Source of the DNA: Defluviitaleaceae bacterium
GTDB taxonomy: Bacteria; Bacillota; Clostridia; Lachnospirales; WQUN01
Length of the DNA stretch: 64,000 bases
Reading direction: 5' to 3'
Assembly: GCA_009781765.1 (NCBI GenBank)
Contig: WQVC01000001.1
Location: 14,774-78,773 of the forward strand
Of the stretch, positions 15,112-46,245 are shown one piece after another. Below the pieces are notes generated by a model. That model worked only from the letters and a program-made list of their open reading frames with translations. It ran no database searches and had not been told where the DNA came from. The translations under genes were made by a program, and so were the position numbers. The first letter of the stretch is position 1; every line of letters begins with the position of its first letter.

Positions 15112-15219
15112 CAGAGAGTGTCGAAAAATTACGCTTTCGCATATGCCGCATCTCGGCAACCGGTCTGAATCCGCCGGTTTCCTGCGATGCCGACACAGCT
15201 TATTTTTCAACACTCTCTG
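15112..15219. repeat. family C TIR element, copy C1 (overlaps the histidine kinase stop)
   Basis: Terminal inverted repeats CAGAGAGTGTCGAAAAATT / TATTTTTCAACACTCTCTG. The core TTTCGCATATGCCGCATCTCGG..CCGCCGGTTTCCTGCGATGC is shared with the other copies. Confidence 0.85.
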
Positions 15220-16480
15220 TCTCTATATACATCTGCAATTCAAATTGCACGTCATCGTATTCAAAACAAAGCTCGCCTCCGAGCTTGTCGCAAGTTTGCG
15301 CCATACTTCTGAGGCCTATGCCGTGATTTGCCTTGTCGGCTTTGGATGTTGCCAAAAATTTTCCGTCGGAACGCGGCTTTGTGCCGATTGTGTTTACTAT
15401 GCGACACAAAAATTGCGCACCGGCAGCCCGGATTTCCACTTTAATGAATTTGCATTTTTCCGACGAACGACCGCAAGCCTCGATTGCGTTATCCAAAGCG
15501 TTGCTCAAAAGCGTACATATTTCAACCGATATATCCGGCAGTCCTTGCGGAATGTCCATTTTCAATGTGAAATCAATATTGTTGCCGACCGCCTCTGCTT
15601 TTTTTGAAGTCAACACAGCATCAAGCATTACATTTCCCGTATCAAGTGTGAGAGTCAGCGGCTTTTTGCCCGATAACTCCGAAATATATGCCCTGAGTTC
15701 GTTTTCTTTTCCCAATAAAGCATGAATCATATCAATACTGTGCCTGAAATCATGTGACATCAGCCGTTTTTCCGCCAAATTATCAGCCAACCCCGTTATA
15801 TAGTTTTGCTGCGTTTCATTTTGAAATTTTTGCAAAATCAAGAGTCGTGATTTTTCATTTTGCCGGATTAAATTTTCAATGAGAACAAGAACAAGCACGT
15901 TTGCCACAACTACACTGTTCCTGATTAAAGGGCCGATTGCAAAAACACCGTCTTCCGCAACGGTATGAATAAATTGGTGCGTAACAAAGGAAGTAACCAT
16001 CATAAGCAAGCAAAAAATTATACCGAGCCTCGTTGTAACAAAATCCATCAGTCCCGGTTTTAACCGCCTGACCGCAAAAACAAACAGCAGCATCAGCAAA
16101 CAGGAAATCTTGAGAAAAACAATCGGATATGCCGCAGTCGGGAAGAAATGCACTACTATGCTGACTGATATTATATCCGAGGTTACCCATGTTAAATGAT
16201 GCAGCCCTGCAACCGCAGCTATAATTACAGGCTTTCTTCGGAAAAAAACCCAACCGATAATTGCAGTCCTTGTTACCGAAATAAAAGCCCCTGCCCAATG
16301 GCCGACAACCTCCGTCGCGGGAAGAAATACAACCGCTGTCGCAAAAACAAAAGTGAGAATTTTCCACACGACATGAATATTTCGCTTGTCCTGCAAAAAT
16401 GATTGCATGAATAAATATGTCAGCCCTGTCACTATAATCGACACGGATATATAAGCAAAATTAACGTAAGCGATACTCAT
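15200..16480 (-). CDS. GHKL-domain sensor histidine kinase (AgrC/LytS-like, multi-TM)
   Basis: ~6 N-terminal TM segments, SHDFRHS H-box, NALDNAIEA N-box, and HGIGLRSM G-box. Confidence 0.8.
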   Translation of the reverse strand: MSIAYVNFAYISVSIIVTGLTYLFMQSFLQDKRNIHVVWKILTFVFATAVVFLPATEVVGHWAGAFISVTRTAIIGWVFFRRKPVIIAAVAGLHHLTWVTSDIISVSIVVHFFPTAAYPIVFLKISCLLMLLFVFAVRRLKPGLMDFVTTRLGIIFCLLMMVTSFVTHQFIHTVAEDGVFAIGPLIRNSVVVANVLVLVLIENLIRQNEKSRLLILQKFQNETQQNYITGLADNLAEKRLMSHDFRHSIDMIHALLGKENELRAYISELSGKKPLTLTLDTGNVMLDAVLTSKKAEAVGNNIDFTLKMDIPQGLPDISVEICTLLSNALDNAIEACGRSSEKCKFIKVEIRAAGAQFLCRIVNTIGTKPRSDGKFLATSKADKANHGIGLRSMAQTCDKLGGELCFEYDDVQFELQMYIETESVEK

Positions 16481-28622: not shown

Positions 28623-29411
28623 TTACGTACTCGGTACGTAGTTGTCGTCCTCGTTGATACGGGCGGTAGCCTGCGGAGCGTATGTCGTCTTGTCGGAATG
28701 CTTGTTGAGGCTGGGGCTGGACATCGGGCCGAGGCTCAAGGGCTGCGGAACTGCTCCTTTGGGCGGCGGCATATACGACATCGGCGGCGGAGCGTGAGCC
28801 GCAAGCGGGGGCGCGGGCTGCTTGGGACGCGGCGAAACAGAGGGCGGCGGCAAGGCGGGGGCAACCGGAGCCGCTTCCGGAATGACGTCGTAATGCGACG
28901 CTTCATAATATGATGCGTCGGAATACACCGGCTCAGTATTTGCGCTTGCGTCGGGGGTTTCGTCGGGTTCGGGGGTTGCGGCGTCGTCGGCCGCGCCGGC
29001 CGGAACAATATCCATATCCTTGAGGCGCAAGATGAATTTATCTACATCGTCGAGCCTGTGATGCAATTCGTTTACATCGTTGCTGTCGAGTTCGGTTAAG
29101 TATTTGCGTACCATTCCCGCATAAACATCCTGAAATGCCTTGATTTTCATGCGTTGACGGTCTACTTCACCGGTAAGTTTATCCAACTCTTTGGCTATTT
29201 GCCCCTTATATTCTTCGGCTTGTGCGCGGGCGTTTTTAATCATGTTATCCGCCGCGATTTGCGCCGAAATAATCGCATTTTTAATGGCGTTATCCTTCTC
29301 TTTGTAGCTTCTTACAACTTGCTCTAATGTAGCGATATATCTGTCGACCTCTTCCGGGTCGTAGCCGCGTTTTACGTAGGTGAACTGTTCCACTGCGAAT
29401 GCTCCTTCCAT
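28623..29411 (-). CDS. DivIVA domain protein with Pro-rich C-terminus
   Basis: N-terminal FTYVKRGYDPEEVDRYI DivIVA motif, a coiled-coil region, and a P-rich tail. Confidence 0.8.
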   Translation of the reverse strand: MEGAFAVEQFTYVKRGYDPEEVDRYIATLEQVVRSYKEKDNAIKNAIISAQIAADNMIKNARAQAEEYKGQIAKELDKLTGEVDRQRMKIKAFQDVYAGMVRKYLTELDSNDVNELHHRLDDVDKFILRLKDMDIVPAGAADDAATPEPDETPDASANTEPVYSDASYYEASHYDVIPEAAPVAPALPPPSVSPRPKQPAPPLAAHAPPPMSYMPPPKGAVPQPLSLGPMSSPSLNKHSDKTTYAPQATARINEDDNYVPST

Positions 29412-36118: not shown

Positions 36119-37159
36119 TTACGACGGCGTTGTTCCGGTGTATGCTTTGTCGAGAATCATTTTTACATTTTTTGCTATCGCCTTAATTACAGGCACGGAA
36201 ACCGAATTTCCGAATTGCTTGTATAAGTGAACATCGGCAACGGTAAACGCAAAATTATCGGGGTAGCCTTGCAATCTTGCCCATTCGCGCGGGGTCATTT
36301 TTCGTATGCCCTCTGTGTTCACTTTACCTTTTATTTTTGTGACAGGGGTTAAATCGGTTTGGCGTTTGTCAATCAGCAAATTACGCTCCCGGCCCATGCC
36401 GCCGCATACAATTGCACCGGCGATGTCTTCCCAATCACGAATTTCAAAACCAAAGCCGTTGCCTTTTGATTCGTGCCTCGCACGATGACGGCGGAGCGTT
36501 TCTACATACACATCACTCAAATAATACTTTGCCGAAACGGGTTGAGCCTCAATTATGTCTTTGATTCGCTTGCTTGAATCTGTGGGGAGCGGGAACTCAA
36601 AGTCTGAACTGTCAATATCATTTCGGAACGCAACTATGTAAATACGCTCCCGATTTTGCGGTACGCCGTAATCCTTGCTGTTAAGTACGCTTTCGTGAAC
36701 CGTATATCCGATTTCTGTCAAAGTGCCTTTAATTATGTCAAAAGTACGCCCTTTGTCGTGTATGGTCAGCCCTTTTACGTTTTCGCAAAAAATTACTTTA
36801 GGCTTATGATGAGCGCAAATACGAGCAACATCAAAAAATAATGTTCCTCGTGACAATCCTTTGTAGTCGTCCGAAAAGCCTTTTTTTGCTCCGGCAAGAC
36901 TAAACGCTTGACACGGAAAACCTGCCAAACAAATATCAAACGGAGGAATATCAATCTCGTCAATTTGAGTTATATCACCCGAAATTTCAACCGAATCGGG
37001 ATAATTAGCACGATAGGTCTGCTGCGCTTTTTCGTCCGATTCACTGATAAAAACTGTTTCAATATTTCCATAAAACGCTTGGTCGAAGCCACGACGAATA
37101 CCGCCAATGCCGGCGAACAAATCTATTGATTTCAGTTTACCCACTTTGTTCACCGCCAA
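36119..37159 (-). CDS. dcm: DNA (cytosine-5)-methyltransferase
   Basis: Motifs DLFAGIGG (I), GFPCQAFS (IV), ENVKGL (VI), QNRERIYIV (VIII), GNSVSVPV (X). The start is uncertain (TTG at 37159, or GTG 15 nt downstream). Confidence 0.9.
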   Translation of the reverse strand: MAVNKVGKLKSIDLFAGIGGIRRGFDQAFYGNIETVFISESDEKAQQTYRANYPDSVEISGDITQIDEIDIPPFDICLAGFPCQAFSLAGAKKGFSDDYKGLSRGTLFFDVARICAHHKPKVIFCENVKGLTIHDKGRTFDIIKGTLTEIGYTVHESVLNSKDYGVPQNRERIYIVAFRNDIDSSDFEFPLPTDSSKRIKDIIEAQPVSAKYYLSDVYVETLRRHRARHESKGNGFGFEIRDWEDIAGAIVCGGMGRERNLLIDKRQTDLTPVTKIKGKVNTEGIRKMTPREWARLQGYPDNFAFTVADVHLYKQFGNSVSVPVIKAIAKNVKMILDKAYTGTTPS

Positions 37160-37200: not shown

Positions 37201-37220
37201 GTTTTTCAACACTCTCACAG
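37201..37220. repeat. solo family C terminal repeat
   Basis: GTTTTTCAACACTCTCACAG matches the right TIR of C1/C3. There is no partner TIR or core. Confidence 0.6.
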
Positions 37221-40153: not shown

Positions 40154-41113
40154 ATGGACATTACGTTTGATGAGGGCGTTAAACTTACAGACAGTGTTAT
40201 TAACGAAAAATTAACCGGGTTTACAAACGGCTTACAAACTGTAACGTCGTATCTTACCGGGTCGAAAGGCAAGGGAGTTCGCACGGCTCTGTTGCTTCTT
40301 TCGGCGACGCAAAAAAACGGTTTGATTAGTTCGAAAGCGGCGCGAGCGGCGGCGTCAATTGAGATTCTACATATGGCAACGCTTATTCACGACGACGTCA
40401 TTGATAATGCGCCGTTGCGTCGCGGCGTTCAAACTGTTCACGAAAAATTCGGCACGAAACAAGCCGTAATTTGCGGCGACTATTTGCTTTGCATGTCCAT
40501 GAACCTGATTTTTGAGCTGCTTGAAAAAGATGAGAACACGCGCTATGCAAATTTGTTGCGAGTGTTGACCAAGGCGATTTCGCGGATTTGCATCGGCGAA
40601 TACGAACAAATGCTTCAAAACGGCAATGTTGACATCGACGTGACTAAGTATTTGAAAATAATTCACGGCAAAACGGCGGCACTTTTTTATGCGGCGTCGC
40701 ATTTCGGAGCAGTTTTCAGCGACGACACTAACGAAGATATTCGGCGCGTGTCGGCGTTCGGCCGGTATTTGGGCGTAATTTTCCAGGTAATGGACGACTG
40801 CAAAGACTTCATGTTCACGGAAGAAGAGGCGTTAAAGCCGGTAAAAAGCGACACTTCGTCCGGCGTGATAACCCTGCCGTTGATTTTCGCGATGCAAAAA
40901 AATGCGGAACTCCGAAATCTCGCGAAGCAGGTTATGCTTAACAAATTCGACAGCCTCGTTTTAGCCAAGGAAGTCATCGAAATCGGCGGCGTAACGGACG
41001 CGAAAGCCCTCGCGCTGCGCTATAAAAACAAGGCCGCAAGAACAATCGCCGATATTTCAAACACGCAAAAAAAAGACGCCCTTCTGAGCGTTTTGAACGA
41101 TATCGAAATATGA
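40154..41113 (+). CDS. polyprenyl diphosphate synthase family protein
   Basis: First DDxxD motif LIHDDVIDN and second FQVMDDCKD. Confidence 0.85.
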   Translation: MDITFDEGVKLTDSVINEKLTGFTNGLQTVTSYLTGSKGKGVRTALLLLSATQKNGLISSKAARAAASIEILHMATLIHDDVIDNAPLRRGVQTVHEKFGTKQAVICGDYLLCMSMNLIFELLEKDENTRYANLLRVLTKAISRICIGEYEQMLQNGNVDIDVTKYLKIIHGKTAALFYAASHFGAVFSDDTNEDIRRVSAFGRYLGVIFQVMDDCKDFMFTEEEALKPVKSDTSSGVITLPLIFAMQKNAELRNLAKQVMLNKFDSLVLAKEVIEIGGVTDAKALALRYKNKAARTIADISNTQKKDALLSVLNDIEI

Positions 41114-41979
41114 CGGGTCTGATGAAAAAGCTCAAATACTACGCAAATCACACGCTTTTTTTAACAAGCCTTACCATTGTGTTTCCCGCAGGGGTCGCGA
41201 TTGTTTTTGCCGCAGAAGGGTTGCCGGGCGTTCGGACAATGGTCTGGATTTTTGTCGCGCTGATTGCGACGCGACTGGGCGGAAATTCGTTTAATCGCAT
41301 CGCCGACCGAAAAATTGATGCGGCAAACCCCCGCACTGAAAACCGCGACATGGTTTCCGGGCGCATAAAACTTGCGGAAGCATGGGTGCTTACCGTTATT
41401 TTTTTTGGCGTTTTGGTGTTCACCGCATGGAATTTAAATTTCTTGTGCTTCATACTTTCGCCGGTTGCAATCGCGCTCGCAATCGGCTATTCCTACACGA
41501 AGCGATTCACATGGCTTTGTCATTACATATTGGGCTTTATTTTCGGCGGCGCGATTGTCGCGGTTTGGATAGCGATTCGCGGCACGGTAGAATTTTTTCC
41601 GTTTTGGTTCGGCGCGGGAATGATGTTTTGGGTTGCCGGACGCGACCTCGTTCTCTCGACGCTTGACGAGGACTTCGACTCCGGTGCCGGGCTGCATTCG
41701 ATTCCCGCTCGTTTCGGCGTAAAAACCGCGCTCGCTGCCGCAACCCTGTCGAAGCTCGCTTTTTTGGCGATTTTGGCGTCGTTTCCGCTGTTTATCCCGC
41801 AACTCGGTGTGCTTTATCTTGTCGGTATCGGCGTGATTTTCGCGTTGCAAGTCGTCGAGTTTGCGTTGATTAACCCGCAAAAGCGCAAACGAATGCTGAT
41901 TACATCGTTTGCTGTCAACAATGTGATTATCGTGGTGTTTTTCGCGGTTGCACTCACAGACTATTTTTTGTACAATTGA
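41110..41979 (+). CDS. UbiA-family aromatic prenyltransferase
   Basis: NSFNRIADRKIDAANPRT motif and 8-9 TM segments. The start overlaps the upstream stop. Confidence 0.8.
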   Translation: MTGLMKKLKYYANHTLFLTSLTIVFPAGVAIVFAAEGLPGVRTMVWIFVALIATRLGGNSFNRIADRKIDAANPRTENRDMVSGRIKLAEAWVLTVIFFGVLVFTAWNLNFLCFILSPVAIALAIGYSYTKRFTWLCHYILGFIFGGAIVAVWIAIRGTVEFFPFWFGAGMMFWVAGRDLVLSTLDEDFDSGAGLHSIPARFGVKTALAAATLSKLAFLAILASFPLFIPQLGVLYLVGIGVIFALQVVEFALINPQKRKRMLITSFAVNNVIIVVFFAVALTDYFLYN

Positions 41980-42035
41980 AGAGAGTTTTGAAAAATGCAG
42001 CGAGCTGCGAACGGGCAATTTTTCAACACTTTCTT
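41980..42035. repeat. miniature family C hairpin (TIRs with a short core)
   Basis: AGAGAGTTTTGAAAAAT..ATTTTTCAACACTTTCT, directly after the ubiA-family stop. Confidence 0.6.
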
Positions 42036-42064
42036 GAGGGCAAAAAATTTTTGAGGAGGGACAT

Positions 42065-42445
42065 ATGAAACGAGTAATTAAAGCAGCAACCTTTGCTTGC
42101 ATGATGGTTTTCGCGCTTGCGATTTTTGCGGGTTGCGGCGGAACAGGTCACGGCGAAGGCGACAGCCACACCGCCGCGCTTGTGGGCGAGTGGGACTTAC
42201 AGGGAAGCCTGTACTACACATTCAACGCCGACGGCACCGGACGTATGCTCGGCGCGGGCAATATTCGTTGGGCAACAAGCGGCGGCACATTGTCGATTTG
42301 CGTAACGCCGGGGTTTTGCGGCAGCGTAAACAATTGCAGCGGCCCGACAACTTGGGACTACACTCTTTCGGGCAACAATTTGACCATGGCCGGTCACGGC
42401 AGAGGTCCGGTTATGGGCGCGACTTATCAATTAACCAGACGGTAG
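42065..42445 (+). CDS. putative lipoprotein
   Basis: Signal peptide with lipobox IFAGC. 126 aa. Confidence 0.65.
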   Translation: MKRVIKAATFACMMVFALAIFAGCGGTGHGEGDSHTAALVGEWDLQGSLYYTFNADGTGRMLGAGNIRWATSGGTLSICVTPGFCGSVNNCSGPTTWDYTLSGNNLTMAGHGRGPVMGATYQLTRR

Positions 42446-42549
42446 CAGAGAGTGTTGAAAAATAGCTTGACCGGCATCTCGGAAGATGGCGGTTTCAGGT
42501 CATTTTCCGAGATGCGGCATATGCGAAAGCGTAATTTTTCAACACTCTC
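42446..42549. repeat. family C TIR element, copy C3
   Basis: CAGAGAGTGTTGAAAAAT..AATTTTTCAACACTCTC. The core is the reverse complement of the C1 core. It abuts the lipoprotein stop. Confidence 0.9.
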
Positions 42550-42561
42550 CGGTAATATTCC

Positions 42562-42733
42562 GAGACCTCGGACTCCGCCCAAACCCTCTCGCGTACTGCG
42601 TACGCCGGGCGGACGGGAAGTTGGGTTGGGTCGGAAACTTTTGAAAGAGTTTCATCAAAAAAACCGCGCGAATGCGCGGTTTTTTTGTGCTTCGGGGCTG
42701 CACGATTCCGGGAAAAATCCCCGTCACGGGGGC
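42562..42733. repeat. family A variant element, copy A9
   Basis: GAGACCTCGGACTCCGCCC (as in A1), GAAACTTTTGAAAGAGTTTC, AAACCGCGCGAATGCGCGGTTT. Confidence 0.75.
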
Positions 42734-42863
42734 AAGAACAAAGGGCTAAAACCTTCGACGGTGCGACAAAGGGAGACATTTTATTTAGACGCGCTTGTAC
42801 ATATGTTCCAAGGTATATTTCTGTTTTTTTCCTGTTTCGCATACTATCCGTTTTTGCGCGACA

Positions 42864-43165
42864 CTAGCAATCTACCGCAAATACGAATTGTGAACAAGCA
42901 ACGCTCGGTGGTCTGATACTATGCACGTATTGCCCCGGAGATTGAACTCCGAATCCTTTGCATATATCATAAGTTCCGCTGTCGAATATTGGAGCAATGC
43001 CGAGCCATTCAAGAGTAATGGCGTTGCGAATTGCTCCAATATTACAAAAATGCCTGTCTTCGTTAAGTATCAGATAGTCGAAGACAATCATTTTGTCAAT
43101 GCCCTCTTTTGCGCTTGGTATGCCGTAAGTTTTGCAACAATCTGAAAAATGTTGATGGAAACTCT
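42864..43165 (-). pseudogene. hipA-like kinase fragment (C-terminal part only)
   Basis: ..IDKMIVFDYLILNEDRHFCNIGAIRNAITLEWLGIAPIFDSGT aligns by eye to residues of the full copy at 44980-46245. There is a stop upstream and the sequence diverges after FDSGT. Confidence 0.75.
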
Positions 43166-43206
43166 ATTTCGTCTGCTTTGTATAGTTCCTATACTTAAAG
43201 CATTAG

Positions 43207-43482
43207 GGCGTCGTTTTCATCAACGACAACGAAAGCGGCTTGCACAGCAACTTCGAAAAGTGGTTGGAAAAACTCGCGCCCGAAAAGCCTCACAGTCAAT
43301 ACGCCCACAACGGCTACGAGGATAACGCGGATGCCCATTTGAAGCGCACCGTCATGGGACGTGAGGTGGTTGTCGCTGTCACCGAAAGCAAGTTGGACTT
43401 CGGAACATTGGAGCAAATCTTTTACGGAGAATTTGACGGCATGAGGGACAAGTGTGTTCTGATAAAAATAATCGGCGAATGA
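43207..43482 (+). pseudogene. YjbQ/UPF0047 family gene, 5'-truncated
   Basis: [52 protein letters not shown] matches the C-terminal two-thirds of YjbQ. It is preceded by an in-frame TAG. Confidence 0.65.
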
Positions 43483-43635
43483 CAAGTTTTCATAGATGCC
43501 GGCGGTTGCCCCGTGGTGGATATAACCGTGAAATTATGCACAAAAGCAGGCGCAGAGTGCGTAATTATTTGCGACACCGCCCACCGGTTTGCAAGGCTCG
43601 CCGAAGCGCACAGCGGAACAAAATATAGCGTTTGA
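43483..43635 (+). pseudogene. YaiI/YqxD (UPF0178) fragment
   Basis: QVFIDAGGCPVVDITVKLC.. resembles the N-terminal IxxDADACPV motif. There is no start codon and only ~50 codons. Confidence 0.5.
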
Positions 43636-43677
43636 AAATTCACTGCGAAAACTTTTGCATGAAGGGATTTGATTCTG

Positions 43678-44026
43678 ATGAACACACTGATAGCAGTATC
43701 AATCGCGCCATTTGGCGTGGGCGATGAACTTTCACAGTATGTAGCGGAAGTTGTGAAAGTTATCGAAGCGTCCGGAGTCATGCCGCACGACCTCCATGTT
43801 TACGGAAATCGAAGGCGATTGGGACGAAGTTACGCAGGTTGTGAAAGACGCAACATTCGTGCTTGCAAGCAAGGGCATCCGCACAAATGTCGTGACGAAA
43901 GCAGATATTCGCCCCGGTCGCACAAATCGTCTGACCGGCAAAGTCGAAAAACTCGACAGTATTTTGGGCGAGAAAAGAGGGCGGATTCAGGCTGGTTTCC
44001 GAGATGCGGCATATGCGAAAGCGTAA
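43678..44026 (+). pseudogene. MTH1187/YkoF-type thiamine-binding protein gene, frameshifted
   Basis: Frame 1 reads MNTLIAVSIAPFGVGDELSQYVAEVVKVIEASGV. Frame 2 reads MFTEIEGDWDEVTQVVKDATFVLASKGIRTNVVTKADIRPGR. The 3' end runs into repeat C4. Confidence 0.65.
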
Positions 44027-44043
44027 TTTTTCAACACTCTCTC
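43978..44043. repeat. family C element, 5'-truncated copy C4
   Basis: GGCGGATTCAGGCTGGTTTCCGAGATGCGGCATATGCGAAAGCGTAATTTTTCAACACTCTC. The left TIR is missing. Confidence 0.8.
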
Positions 44044-44201
44044 AGACGACTTTGGCAACCAATTAGATTGTATAAATGTGGGTTGCTTGCGTATTTTTCA
44101 TCTGCGATACATGTAGGAATACCGATTGATACATTTTTCACTCATTCTTGGGAATGCTACGGTAAGACAGCAAAAACTTTAGAAAAATCGGAGTGAACAA
44201 T

Positions 44202-44495
44202 ATGGAAAATCAAAATTCATCCGCATTGCCGATGATGTCTGTGAAAGAAATTCCCCAAGCAAGCAACACCGCCGCACAAATTACCGCACTCGTAAAAGAA
44301 AGCGGAAAAGTGGTAGGTTATCAGCTTTCAACCGGTCAAACGTTGGGTAAAGATGAAGCCGTAGCGTTAGCGCGTCAAGGCGGAATCCAAGGCGTCGGCA
44401 TTTCCGAACGCGACGGAAATGAATACTTGAAATCCATTCCTGACGGCACGGAAAGCAATAATTTGAACAATTTGCCGGCTGTATCTTTTACGTAA
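44202..44495 (+). CDS. DUF3892-like small protein
   Basis: ITALVKESGKVVGYQLSTGQTLGKDEAVALARQGGIQGVGISERDGNEYLKSIPDGTESNNLNNLP fits my recollection of the DUF3892 pattern. Confidence 0.5.
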   Translation: MENQNSSALPMMSVKEIPQASNTAAQITALVKESGKVVGYQLSTGQTLGKDEAVALARQGGIQGVGISERDGNEYLKSIPDGTESNNLNNLPAVSFT

Positions 44496-44534
44496 ATTTT
44501 TGCTCGGGAACACACGCGCAAAGGAGAGATTGAC

Positions 44535-44657
44535 GTGGCGAAGAAAAAGAAAAACGTGTTTAACGATGGCGTTAAAAATGCCGAGGATAATGAAAATATC
44601 GGTGAACGGCTTAATATGCCGGTAGGCAGCAAACGCCCCCGAAAAACCGCAAAATGA
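44535..44657 (+). CDS. possible 40-aa basic protein
   Basis: AAGGAGAG RBS 6 nt before a GTG. Not in the ORF track (<60 aa). Confidence 0.25.
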   Translation: MAKKKKNVFNDGVKNAEDNENIGERLNMPVGSKRPRKTAK

Positions 44658-44848
44658 TTTTATGGTGAGTCAAAATAATTTTGCTCGCGCTTGCGCGATA
44701 GCGAAATTATTTTAGACGAACGCCCCTCACCGACGAAGCGAAGCGTAGGGGGTGGGGAAAATTTTTCGAAGCAAAATATAGTCGGTCAATATTAAATTGA
44801 CCGACTGTATACCGTTCCTCAAGCCCGATGTTTAACATACTGTATTTA

Positions 44849-44958
44849 GGCGACCTCTAAAAACCCTAATTTTCGCATACCTCGCTCCTCAGAAAATGGC
44901 TTGAAACCACCTTTTCTTGCGGAGCTTCGGAGCTCAAAAAGGGTTTTTGGAGGTCGCC
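44849..44958. repeat. family C TIR element, copy C5
   Basis: GGCGACCTCTAAAAACCC..GGGTTTTTGGAGGTCGCC. The core is related to C2. It lies 21 nt downstream of the hipA-like stop. Confidence 0.85.
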
Positions 44959-44979
44959 TGTGTTGTCACAGCCACAGAT

Positions 44980-46245
44980 TTATAAATCCGGTTCATCGTT
45001 CCCCACAGTTTTCTTTTTTTGCGAAGGCTGTTTGACAATATTTTTGTGAGCTTTGATTTTTTGTGTAACAGATGGAATTTCCAAGTCAATACGCATTTGC
45101 TCCACAATTCCGGCACGGCGCACAACAGCGTTTCCGATAGCCTTGGCACGTTCGAGTGCTACCGTGCTTGACCTTGCAAATATTTCGGCACAATCAGACT
45201 CGATGCTTTTTAGCGCGTCGTAGTCAAACCAATTCAAACTTTGCACAAGTTTAAGTTGTTCGTCGTGGTTTTTCCTGAACGGCTTGGATTCAACCGCAGA
45301 GCCAACTCTTTGCGTGTTATACCAAAGCGATGTCCCGCTGTCATAAACAGGAGCGAAGCCAATCCATTCCAAGGTTTCGGCATTTCGCAAAAAACCGAAA
45401 TTATTGTAATGCCTATCCTCGTTGGCGATTATATAATCAAGTGTCAACATTTTATCAATGGCTGAGATGATGCCGGTCATTTCCATCCCAAGCCCTTCGC
45501 AACAACGCAACAGATGAGTCAGCTCCGACTCGTTGTTGAGCCGCTTCATAGTTTGAACGACCCTCCACGCGGGCACAAGCTCTGTATGGGAAGTAATGAA
45601 ATTTTCGCATACGCTGTATGCTTTTTCCCCTTCAGAAGCAGGCTCAAAAAGCAAGTCATAGGCGATGTGTGGAATTTGCAACCGCTTCATAACAGCGGTG
45701 GCAACAACTTCGTTAAAAGGCTCTTGCTCAAAAACTCCGCTTCCGCCTTTGATTAAAACTCGCTTGCCATCTGCTATGCTCCATTTTTTTCTGAGCCAAC
45801 CGTCCGAGGTGCAGTCCGGCGAAAGCATATTTATCGTGCCTTTGGGGATATTGCCAAATAATATCTCGCCAATATCCCCCGAAAAATCGTTGTCGAAGAA
45901 ATTTACAGCACTCCAATTAAGCCCTGAATCTTTGGGCTTTATCCAATATTGGTCAGACAGGCTCAGACCGTAGCATTTGACGATAAGGGCGGCGGGTGTC
46001 CGTAAATCCAAAGCGCAAAGAGCCGCCTCTATTTTATCTCGGCTTGCGGGAATAGAGCGACCAAGCCACCAATCGTTGAGGGCGGCTCGGTTTGGCTTGT
46101 TTTTATCTGCGCGCCTTAACCCTGTCGTGCCTATGGGTAAATGTTCGGGAGCATAAATTGTACCGATTTTATCAATATAACCGTTGTCAGGGTCAATTTC
46201 CACGTCCGCAATAGATATGTTTTTATGCATAAGTGTGCAAGTCAC
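44980..46245 (-). CDS. HipA-like serine/threonine kinase (type II toxin family)
   Basis: 421 aa. Catalytic-loop region LDYIIANEDRHYNNFGFL and APVYDSGTS. GGAGGG RBS 6 nt before a GTG. Confidence 0.75.
   Translation of the reverse strand: MTCTLMHKNISIADVEIDPDNGYIDKIGTIYAPEHLPIGTTGLRRADKNKPNRAALNDWWLGRSIPASRDKIEAALCALDLRTPAALIVKCYGLSLSDQYWIKPKDSGLNWSAVNFFDNDFSGDIGEILFGNIPKGTINMLSPDCTSDGWLRKKWSIADGKRVLIKGGSGVFEQEPFNEVVATAVMKRLQIPHIAYDLLFEPASEGEKAYSVCENFITSHTELVPAWRVVQTMKRLNNESELTHLLRCCEGLGMEMTGIISAIDKMLTLDYIIANEDRHYNNFGFLRNAETLEWIGFAPVYDSGTSLWYNTQRVGSAVESKPFRKNHDEQLKLVQSLNWFDYDALKSIESDCAEIFARSSTVALERAKAIGNAVVRRAGIVEQMRIDLEIPSVTQKIKAHKNIVKQPSQKKKTVGNDEPDL

Follow-up and report, generated by a model that had tools for sequence, protein, structure and literature searches.

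Introduction

Type II MITEs are short, non-autonomous derivatives of cut-and-paste transposons. The Correia elements (CREE) of Neisseria are hairpin MITEs of ~100–155 nt, bounded by terminal inverted repeats (TIRs), which lie by genes and affect neighbouring transcripts; they are flanked by a TA duplication and contain outward promoters as well as a site for IHF. Type II MITEs measure less than 300 bp, possess TIRs and target-site duplications, lack a transposase gene and fold into a stable hairpin (PMC10969869, PMC3184786). They occur in tens to hundreds of copies that are mostly intergenic, and deletion derivatives, nesting and occasional in-frame fusions to ORFs belong to their known repertoire (PMC10969869, PMC3184786). 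The Rickettsia palindromic elements (RPEs) are palindromic repeats of ~100–150 nt that form in-frame inserts in housekeeping genes (PMC10969869).

In the present study, we describe a repeat family, termed family C, from an uncultured termite-gut Defluviitaleaceae bacterium with an assembly of 2.94 Mb (154 contigs, 49.5% GC, 94% complete). All the type II MITE traits listed above are common to family C, but its core is better conserved than its TIRs, which is the reverse of the usual pattern. Furthermore, its combination of a T-N-N-N-A target and a duplication of 5 bp is one that we can assign to no described MITE. Like the Correia elements, family C combines several TIR variants with one core and displays size classes that reflect internal deletions. 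However, it produces a 5-bp duplication, its sequence is unrelated, and its TIR types differ at 21/34 positions rather than at a few. With the RPEs it shares the retention of palindromic copies in frame within functional genes, a likeness of behaviour for which no homology is claimed. Unlike the RPEs, family C displays clear TIRs together with target-site duplications, most of its copies are intergenic (about 8% are intragenic), and its host is a free-living gut Firmicute rather than an obligate intracellular alphaproteobacterium. Finally, family C shares with the pneumococcal BOX, RUP and SPRITE repeats a modular make-up, with small repeats that cluster and become inserted into each other; SPRITE is terminator-like, whereas family C has no terminator-like U-tract and is bounded by TIRs and target-site duplications. 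No report of a MITE in the Defluviitaleaceae was found in the literature searched.

Anatomy and genomic census of family C

Family C elements consist of TIRs of 16–18 nt that flank a conserved, imperfectly palindromic core of ~67 nt. The 16-nt TIR-A (GAGAGTGTTGAAAAAT) was detected at 157 genomic sites with at most one mismatch, distributed evenly over both strands, and the 18-nt TIR-C (GGCGACCTCTGAAAACCC) at about 30 sites. Pairing of facing repeats delimited 73 TIR-bounded copies of 25–248 nt, with a modal length of 109 nt for TIR-A and 111 nt for TIR-C copies, and about 67 solo or truncated TIRs were left unpaired genome-wide. In a search with a covariance model built on the 67-nt core, the genome gave 88 matches. 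None of the 73 bounded copies contained a transposase ORF, and the elements are non-coding. Identity within subfamilies ranged from 83 to 99% (means of 91–95%), and with copies at this level of identity the activity of the family need not be current.

Minor size classes were found both below the mode (25–28, 53–56, 79 and 101–106 nt) and above it (130–136 and 163 nt). The central stem is absent from the minis, as would be expected from excision of the hairpin. The smallest class, micro-elements of 25–28 nt, was observed on contig C40 (16545-16569), contig C31 (15431-15455), contig C15 (7682-7706) and contig C4 (11978-12005). These consist either of one TIR-A that is closed by a short GAGAG..CTCTC or of two TIRs that directly adjoin each other, and some of them are flanked by 5-bp repeats (ATTAT/ATTAT). 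If mobile, they would count among the smallest derivatives of MITEs.

Each copy was predicted to fold into one imperfect hairpin running from end to end, with a free energy of −50 to −68 kcal/mol and z-scores of −7 to −11. When 50 copies representing four subfamilies and five genomes were aligned, standard pairs made up 96% of the cells at the 30 consensus pairs, and 23/30 pairs showed compensatory changes on both sides, counts that overstate the number of independent events. When the partners were slid by 1–3 columns as a control, pairing fell to 38–50% and the compensated pairs to 5–12. This covariation does not by itself amount to RNA function, because hairpin-templated repair can keep a DNA palindrome paired. 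The core blocks TTCGCATAYG and CAGCTCA were conserved though partly unpaired. An Rfam scan of the window, i.e. the whole stretch of 64,000 nt that was analysed, returned at gathering thresholds two tRNA matches only and no match to family C.

Family C copies in the window

The original prediction named seven family C loci in the window and a core shared between them. All seven are present, with boundaries redrawn by the TIRs, and the two shared core motifs gave 4 and 2 window matches where 0.01 and 0.00 were expected. The names that had been proposed for the neighbouring genes were borne out by Pfam. The locus was detected in only two DNA metagenome runs and in no RNA run. The contigs of these two runs contained no empty-site variants and gave no sign of insertion polymorphism.

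Copy C1 (15114..15217, plus strand) measures 104 nt, has TIR-A ends (GAGAGTGTCGAAAAAT / ATTTTTCAACACTCTC) and an A1-type core, and is not flanked by a target-site duplication. Copy C2 (28512..28622, plus strand) is a 111-nt element with TIR-C ends (GGCGACCTCTGAAAACCC), the flanks of which, TTAC(G)/TTACG, were read as a target-site duplication, and it directly abuts (0 nt) the TAA stop codon of a DivIVA-domain gene on the minus strand (28623-29411). A group of further copies lies between positions 41981 and 44958. The mini copy at 41981..42033 (plus strand, 53 nt) comprises two TIR-A arms and the outer stubs of the core, the central hairpin being deleted; its flanks are TTGAA/TTGAG, and the TGA stop codon of a UbiA-family gene (41110-41979) lies within the duplicated target. 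Copy C3 (42448..42549) has TIR-A ends and an A1 core in reverse orientation (minus strand, 102 nt), and lies 2 nt past the TAG stop codon of a DUF5640 lipoprotein gene (42065-42445). Copy C4 (43975..44041, minus strand) is 5′-truncated and retains the right half of the core and one TIR-A, and copy C5 (44849..44958, plus strand) is a 110-nt element with TIR-C ends and a diverged core, separated by 21 nt from the stop codon of a HipA_C-domain gene on the minus strand (44980-46245).

The seventh locus is a solo TIR-A at 37201..37216 (minus strand; GTTTTTCAACACTCTC). A minus-strand gene at 36119-37159, judged by eye to encode a putative cytosine methyltransferase, has its start codon 42 nt downstream of this TIR, and the nearest stop codon is 325 nt away. 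The claim that every copy lies at or near a stop codon accordingly stands for six of the seven window copies, which are found within ~21 nt of one, but not for this solo TIR.

Insertion is marked by 5-bp target-site duplications

If family C spread as a mobile element, its copies could be flanked by target-site duplications. Indeed, the 5-mers on either side matched perfectly at 16/61 TIR-A copies, as compared to 0.5 expected, and the largest perfect count reached by permuting the flanks in two runs of 2000 was 3 or 4. There was no excess at k=4 (0/61) and only 2/61 copies matched at k=6, which sets the duplication at exactly 5 bp. For TIR-C the boundary is ambiguous and the duplication may be read as 4 or 5 bp; with the first G of TIR-C counted as flank, 20/73 of all copies were perfect and 39/73 matched at no fewer than four of the five positions. 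The duplicated 5-mers tend to begin with T (or C) and to end with A (or G), which describes a weak T-N-N-N-A target in which TTGAA recurs. A clean target-site duplication was absent from about half of the copies, including the copy at the histidine kinase gene. Together, the 5-bp scars with their sharp peak at k=5, the TIRs and the lack of coding capacity supported the MITE-like nature that had been proposed for these elements.

An empty site was identified in mfd. Six orthologues from the same genus align with the protein on both sides of the insert and lack exactly the 38-residue ESVEKLRFRTCRISKNDLKPSFSCDAGTAQAIFQHSP segment (ESVEK..IFQHSP).

Position of the copies relative to genes

Genes were called with a home-made ORF and codon-usage caller, a crude procedure that yielded 2210 genes at 82% coding. 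Twelve of the 73 copies fell inside called ORFs and five at contig ends, which left 56 intergenic copies. Of these, 26 (46%) were located between tandem genes, 18 (32%) between divergent (5′/5′) genes and 12 (21%) between convergent genes, as compared to 62%, 21% and 16% of the intergenic bases, respectively. Nineteen intergenic copies were found at most 9 nt from a stop codon, while 9.2 were expected when each copy was placed uniformly within its own intergenic region, and none of 5000 simulations reached 19. The same test for start codons showed no excess (11 versus 9.9 expected). In many of these copies the stop codon falls within the duplicated 5-mer or touches it, as in ttgaa/, gtaa/G, tagca/ and taaag/. 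With respect to transcription, one orientation prevailed over the other by 15 to 6 in tandem regions and by 13 to 5 near stop codons, but this was not significant (about p 0.1).

These data bear out in part the idea that the family is enriched at gene 3′ ends throughout the genome. The excess within 9 nt of stop codons is twofold; however, with 18/56 intergenic copies between divergent genes, 12/73 copies within called ORFs and at least six in-frame inserts, family C is not a 3′-end element.

Gene tails written by the element

One gene end provided by family C is that of the GHKL histidine kinase gene (15200-16480, minus strand), whose PF14501 domain stops at residue 419 of the 426 residues of the protein. 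On the minus strand, from position 15217 down to 15200, the gene ends with GAG AGT GTT GAA AAA TAA, which is entirely element sequence. The five ESVEK codons thus lie inside the TIR of copy C1 and the stop codon is also derived from the element, precisely as had been suggested. The orthologue in a sister species (G003), an 81% identical protein with the same gene downstream, does not end in ESVEK but in ..QIYIPIII*, and its locus is devoid of a family C copy and represents the empty state. In that genome, a different palindromic repeat of ~75 nt (tgtagcgatttcgtttgaaattgggc..gcccatttcaaatcgaaacgcctaca; L042:971-1060) directly follows the kinase stop codon. Two unrelated repeats have settled at one and the same kinase 3′ spot, family C in the one species and the other palindrome in G003.

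A second case concerns the Thiamine_BP gene (MTH1187-like, PF01910; window positions 43669-44026), the coding sequence of which switches from one frame to another near 43790-43830. The frameshift seems to be real rather than an assembly slip, since the metagenome contigs contained no indel variant there. In the second ORF the domain ends at residue 53, and the truncated copy C4 encodes the last ~16 residues, RGRIQAGFRDAAYAKA*, which confirms that this tail is element-derived. Genome-wide, the stop codon overlaps a family C element or fragment in 16 genes, and two proteins have an ESVEK C-terminus. Together with the different end of the kinase orthologue, these counts support the view that the elements are able to donate stop codons.

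In-frame inserts in proteins

A TIR-A element of modal length with its duplication adds 109 + 5 = 114 nt, which equals 38 codons. Real in-frame inserts were found in at least six genes, namely mfd, an MFS transporter gene, azlC, tmk, a methyltransferase gene and a radical-SAM maturase gene. The insert, counted as element plus 5-bp duplication, measures 114 nt in five of these and 108 nt in one, the radical-SAM maturase gene, where the copy is 103 nt long (103 + 5 = 108). The peptide ESVEK..IFQHS recurs among the inserts. Of the six reading frames, one is open in the A1 core and three in the B core as read by hand, in agreement with the insert peptides. The remaining copies called inside ORFs probably lie upstream of the true starts.

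We also considered whether the length classes were selected as multiples of three. A multiple-of-three length is found for 42/61 TIR-A copies, but for only 9/22 distinct lengths, which makes the case for such selection weak. The signal can be traced to a small number of master copies and gives no strong indication of adaptation.

Separately, the Mfd protein (contig C37) was seen to carry a second variable insert after ..FPAIGKYS, at residues ~228–280. It is partly common to the genomes G005 and G002 and is absent from four other species. This second insert is probably another repeat-derived segment.

Ends and core have discordant histories

The presence of two TIR types around one core had been taken as a sign of modular evolution, and the comparison of subfamilies substantiated this. 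Between the A1 and C types the cores agree at 59/67 positions and the TIRs at only 13/34, whereas between the A1 and B types the TIRs agree at 31/31 positions and the cores at only 48/67; these contrasts were all significant by Fisher tests. The histories of TIRs and core are thus discordant. A third TIR type (TAGGAAACACAGGTTAACCA..) surrounds the same core in G021, a genome of a different genus, so that one conserved core is found with three TIR types in three genera. Under the three TIR sets the identity of the core is 76–88%, whereas the TIR sets agree with each other at only about a third of their positions.

TIR-A is nearly private to the genome under study, with 157 sites as compared to 0–1 in each of 39 other genomes of the family; one TIR-A-like copy is present in G050, which represents a third genus. 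Core copies were detected in 7/40 genomes of the family, numbering 88, 16, 13, 3, 2, 1 and 1, with the 13 copies belonging to G021. This patchy distribution is compatible with horizontal spread among co-residents of the gut. Among public species representatives, genuine copies of the core pattern were confined to three termite-gut Defluviitaleaceae genomes. All further public matches were dismissed as chance or as an unrelated repeat in one genome.

The longer size classes are due to nesting. A hairpin repeat of 27 nt inserted once into family C gives the 136-nt class and inserted twice the 163-nt class. Examples outside the window are found in the studied genome (G000) on contig C53 (19138-19273) and contig C40 (16736-16898). 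The genome contains 51 occurrences of GCGGGCGTTCTTTGCCCG, the heart of the 27-nt repeat, whose length is likewise divisible by three. The 248-nt copy on contig C64 (14790-15037) of the same genome carries a nested element of ~140 nt with inverted repeats of its own (CTATAGTGAATCAA..TTGATTCACTATA), which represents another MITE-like family. In addition, a 43-nt repeat (AAATCATTTCGCCCTTCGCCGAAAACCGGCCTGAAGCCGCCGGTTTTCGCCTC) with at least 13 copies has the central stem-loop in common with the B-type core and is devoid of TIRs. It was observed, for instance, on contigs C55 (30-72), C101 (49-91), C80 (747-789) and C93 (749-791), at fixed distances from several contig ends and within ~1-kb repeats that are 85–90% identical.

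Search for a partner transposase

No autonomous element with family C ends was found in the genome, in its relatives or among the metagenome matches listed. A domain search of the genome detected no PF01609 (IS4/IS5), PF13546 (IS701), PF00872 (IS256), PF01526 (Tn3) or PF01797 (Y1). The sole rve (PF00665) match is a frameshifted IS3 orfB on contig C43 (120-960), the ends of which are unrelated to family C. Likewise, the sole strict pair of TIRs more than 300 nt apart, on contig C4 (4418-8191), encloses a gene for a copper-amine-oxidase/CAP-domain-like surface protein and no transposase gene. Among relaxed TIR pairs at 0.5–4.5 kb from each other, none combined a target-site duplication with a transposase, and the genes beside solo TIRs have housekeeping functions and include no transposase gene. 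The TIR-A 16-mer had only chance matches among the metagenome contig matches listed.

Candidates from related genomes were rejected as well. The IS5-type and IS256-type elements of sister genomes have ends unrelated to those of family C. Genes for a PD-(D/E)XK "transposase" (PF12784) are present in 32/40 genomes, with eleven in the studied genome (contig C21, 44-868; contig C60, 14010-14860; and nine more), but their distribution is unrelated to that of family C, as G021 contains 13 cores and no such gene. With a genome that is 94% complete in 154 contigs, the parent IS could be among the unassembled sequences.

Discussion

We conclude that family C is most probably a type II MITE family, and that its effects on gene ends are by-products of insertion and selection. 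As judged from the scars, a transposase acting in trans would bind the TIRs and insert the element by a 5-bp staggered cut. The cut would be made at a weakly palindromic T-N-N-N-A, with TTGAA as the best target, and would give rise to the 5-bp target-site duplication. Such targets may often contain or adjoin TAA or TGA and lie in AT-rich surroundings. Copies just past stop codons would survive preferentially, because they would leave both the upstream protein and the downstream promoter unharmed. We infer that target preference and selection explain the adjacency to stop codons.

Where insertion takes place within the last codons of a gene, the in-frame TIR would read ESVEK followed by TAA, TAG or TGA, and so replace the native tail. 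The 38-residue inserts may persist in linker regions, as in Mfd, owing to the length of 114 nt and the one to three open frames. Deletions of the central hairpin would generate the minis of 25–79 nt, while nested small hairpin repeats would generate the 136- and 163-nt forms. The mosaics of three TIR types and two core types could stem either from recombination at conserved blocks within the core or from capture by another transposase.

Conceivably, the family could instead consist of 3′-end modules selected at the RNA level, either terminators or hairpins that protect mRNA, for which mobility served only as the means of delivery. This idea would be in line with the observation that copies are twice as frequent as expected within 9 nt of stop codons but not at start codons, with the very stable hairpins and with the mild excess of one orientation near stop codons (13 versus 5). 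Moreover, in the B type the central stem is laid out as an A-tract, a GC stem and a T-tract (GAAAACCGGC..GCCGGTTTTC). However, the full hairpin is followed by ordinary flank rather than by a run of T residues, a terminator scan of window positions 41500-45500 called 0/5 of the copies located there, and the orientation bias was not significant (about p 0.1). The 18/56 intergenic copies between divergent genes and the at least six copies in frame inside genes are also difficult to reconcile with a role at 3′ ends. As for the compensatory changes that keep the structure across subfamilies and genera, these can result from hairpin-templated repair without any selection on RNA. We therefore see no support for a terminator or stabiliser role and regard selected 3′-end modules as unlikely.

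The long hairpin formed by each element, the nesting of other small hairpin repeats into family C and the fact that no DDE partner was found are features that would also suit palindromes of the REP/BIME or IS200/IS605 type, spread by Y1/RAYT proteins acting on single-stranded hairpins rather than by a DDE enzyme acting on TIRs. Yet, a target-site duplication with a sharp peak at k=5 is not a known product of Y1 transposases, PF01797 is absent from the genome, and the ends are true inverted repeats of 16–18 nt instead of subterminal hairpins with a conserved tetranucleotide, which renders such an origin very improbable. An origin as Tn3-derived miniature elements (TIMEs) is an equally faint prospect. 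The 5-bp duplication at AT-leaning targets would fit, as would the GG at the start of the TIR and the GAAAAC within it; TIR-C (GGCGACCTCTGAAAACCC) bears what we take to be a loose resemblance to the outer part of the Tn21-type 38-bp repeats. Nevertheless, PF01526 was detected in 0/40 genomes of the family, and the TIRs measure 16–18 nt instead of about 38 nt and have no GGGG start.

Within the interpretation of family C as a type II MITE family, the conservation of the core deserves separate consideration. It is possible, though rather doubtful, that the 67-nt core hairpin is the selected unit and has repeatedly been re-armed with new ends by different transposases, in which case transposition may require it as a DNA hairpin or the host may benefit from it as an RNA structure. 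The alternative is that the core is a passive filler between the TIRs.

Family C opens no new class of system. It adds a well-documented MITE family of the Defluviitaleaceae, with 5-bp duplications, a near-complete series of deletion and nesting forms, and discordant histories of TIRs and core. The TIRs together with the 5-bp target provide a search image for the missing transposase in closed termite-gut genomes. Several housekeeping proteins of this bacterium carry a 38-residue loop derived from the repeat, and the annotation of gene ends and extra protein segments, here and in related genomes, should take the repeat into account.
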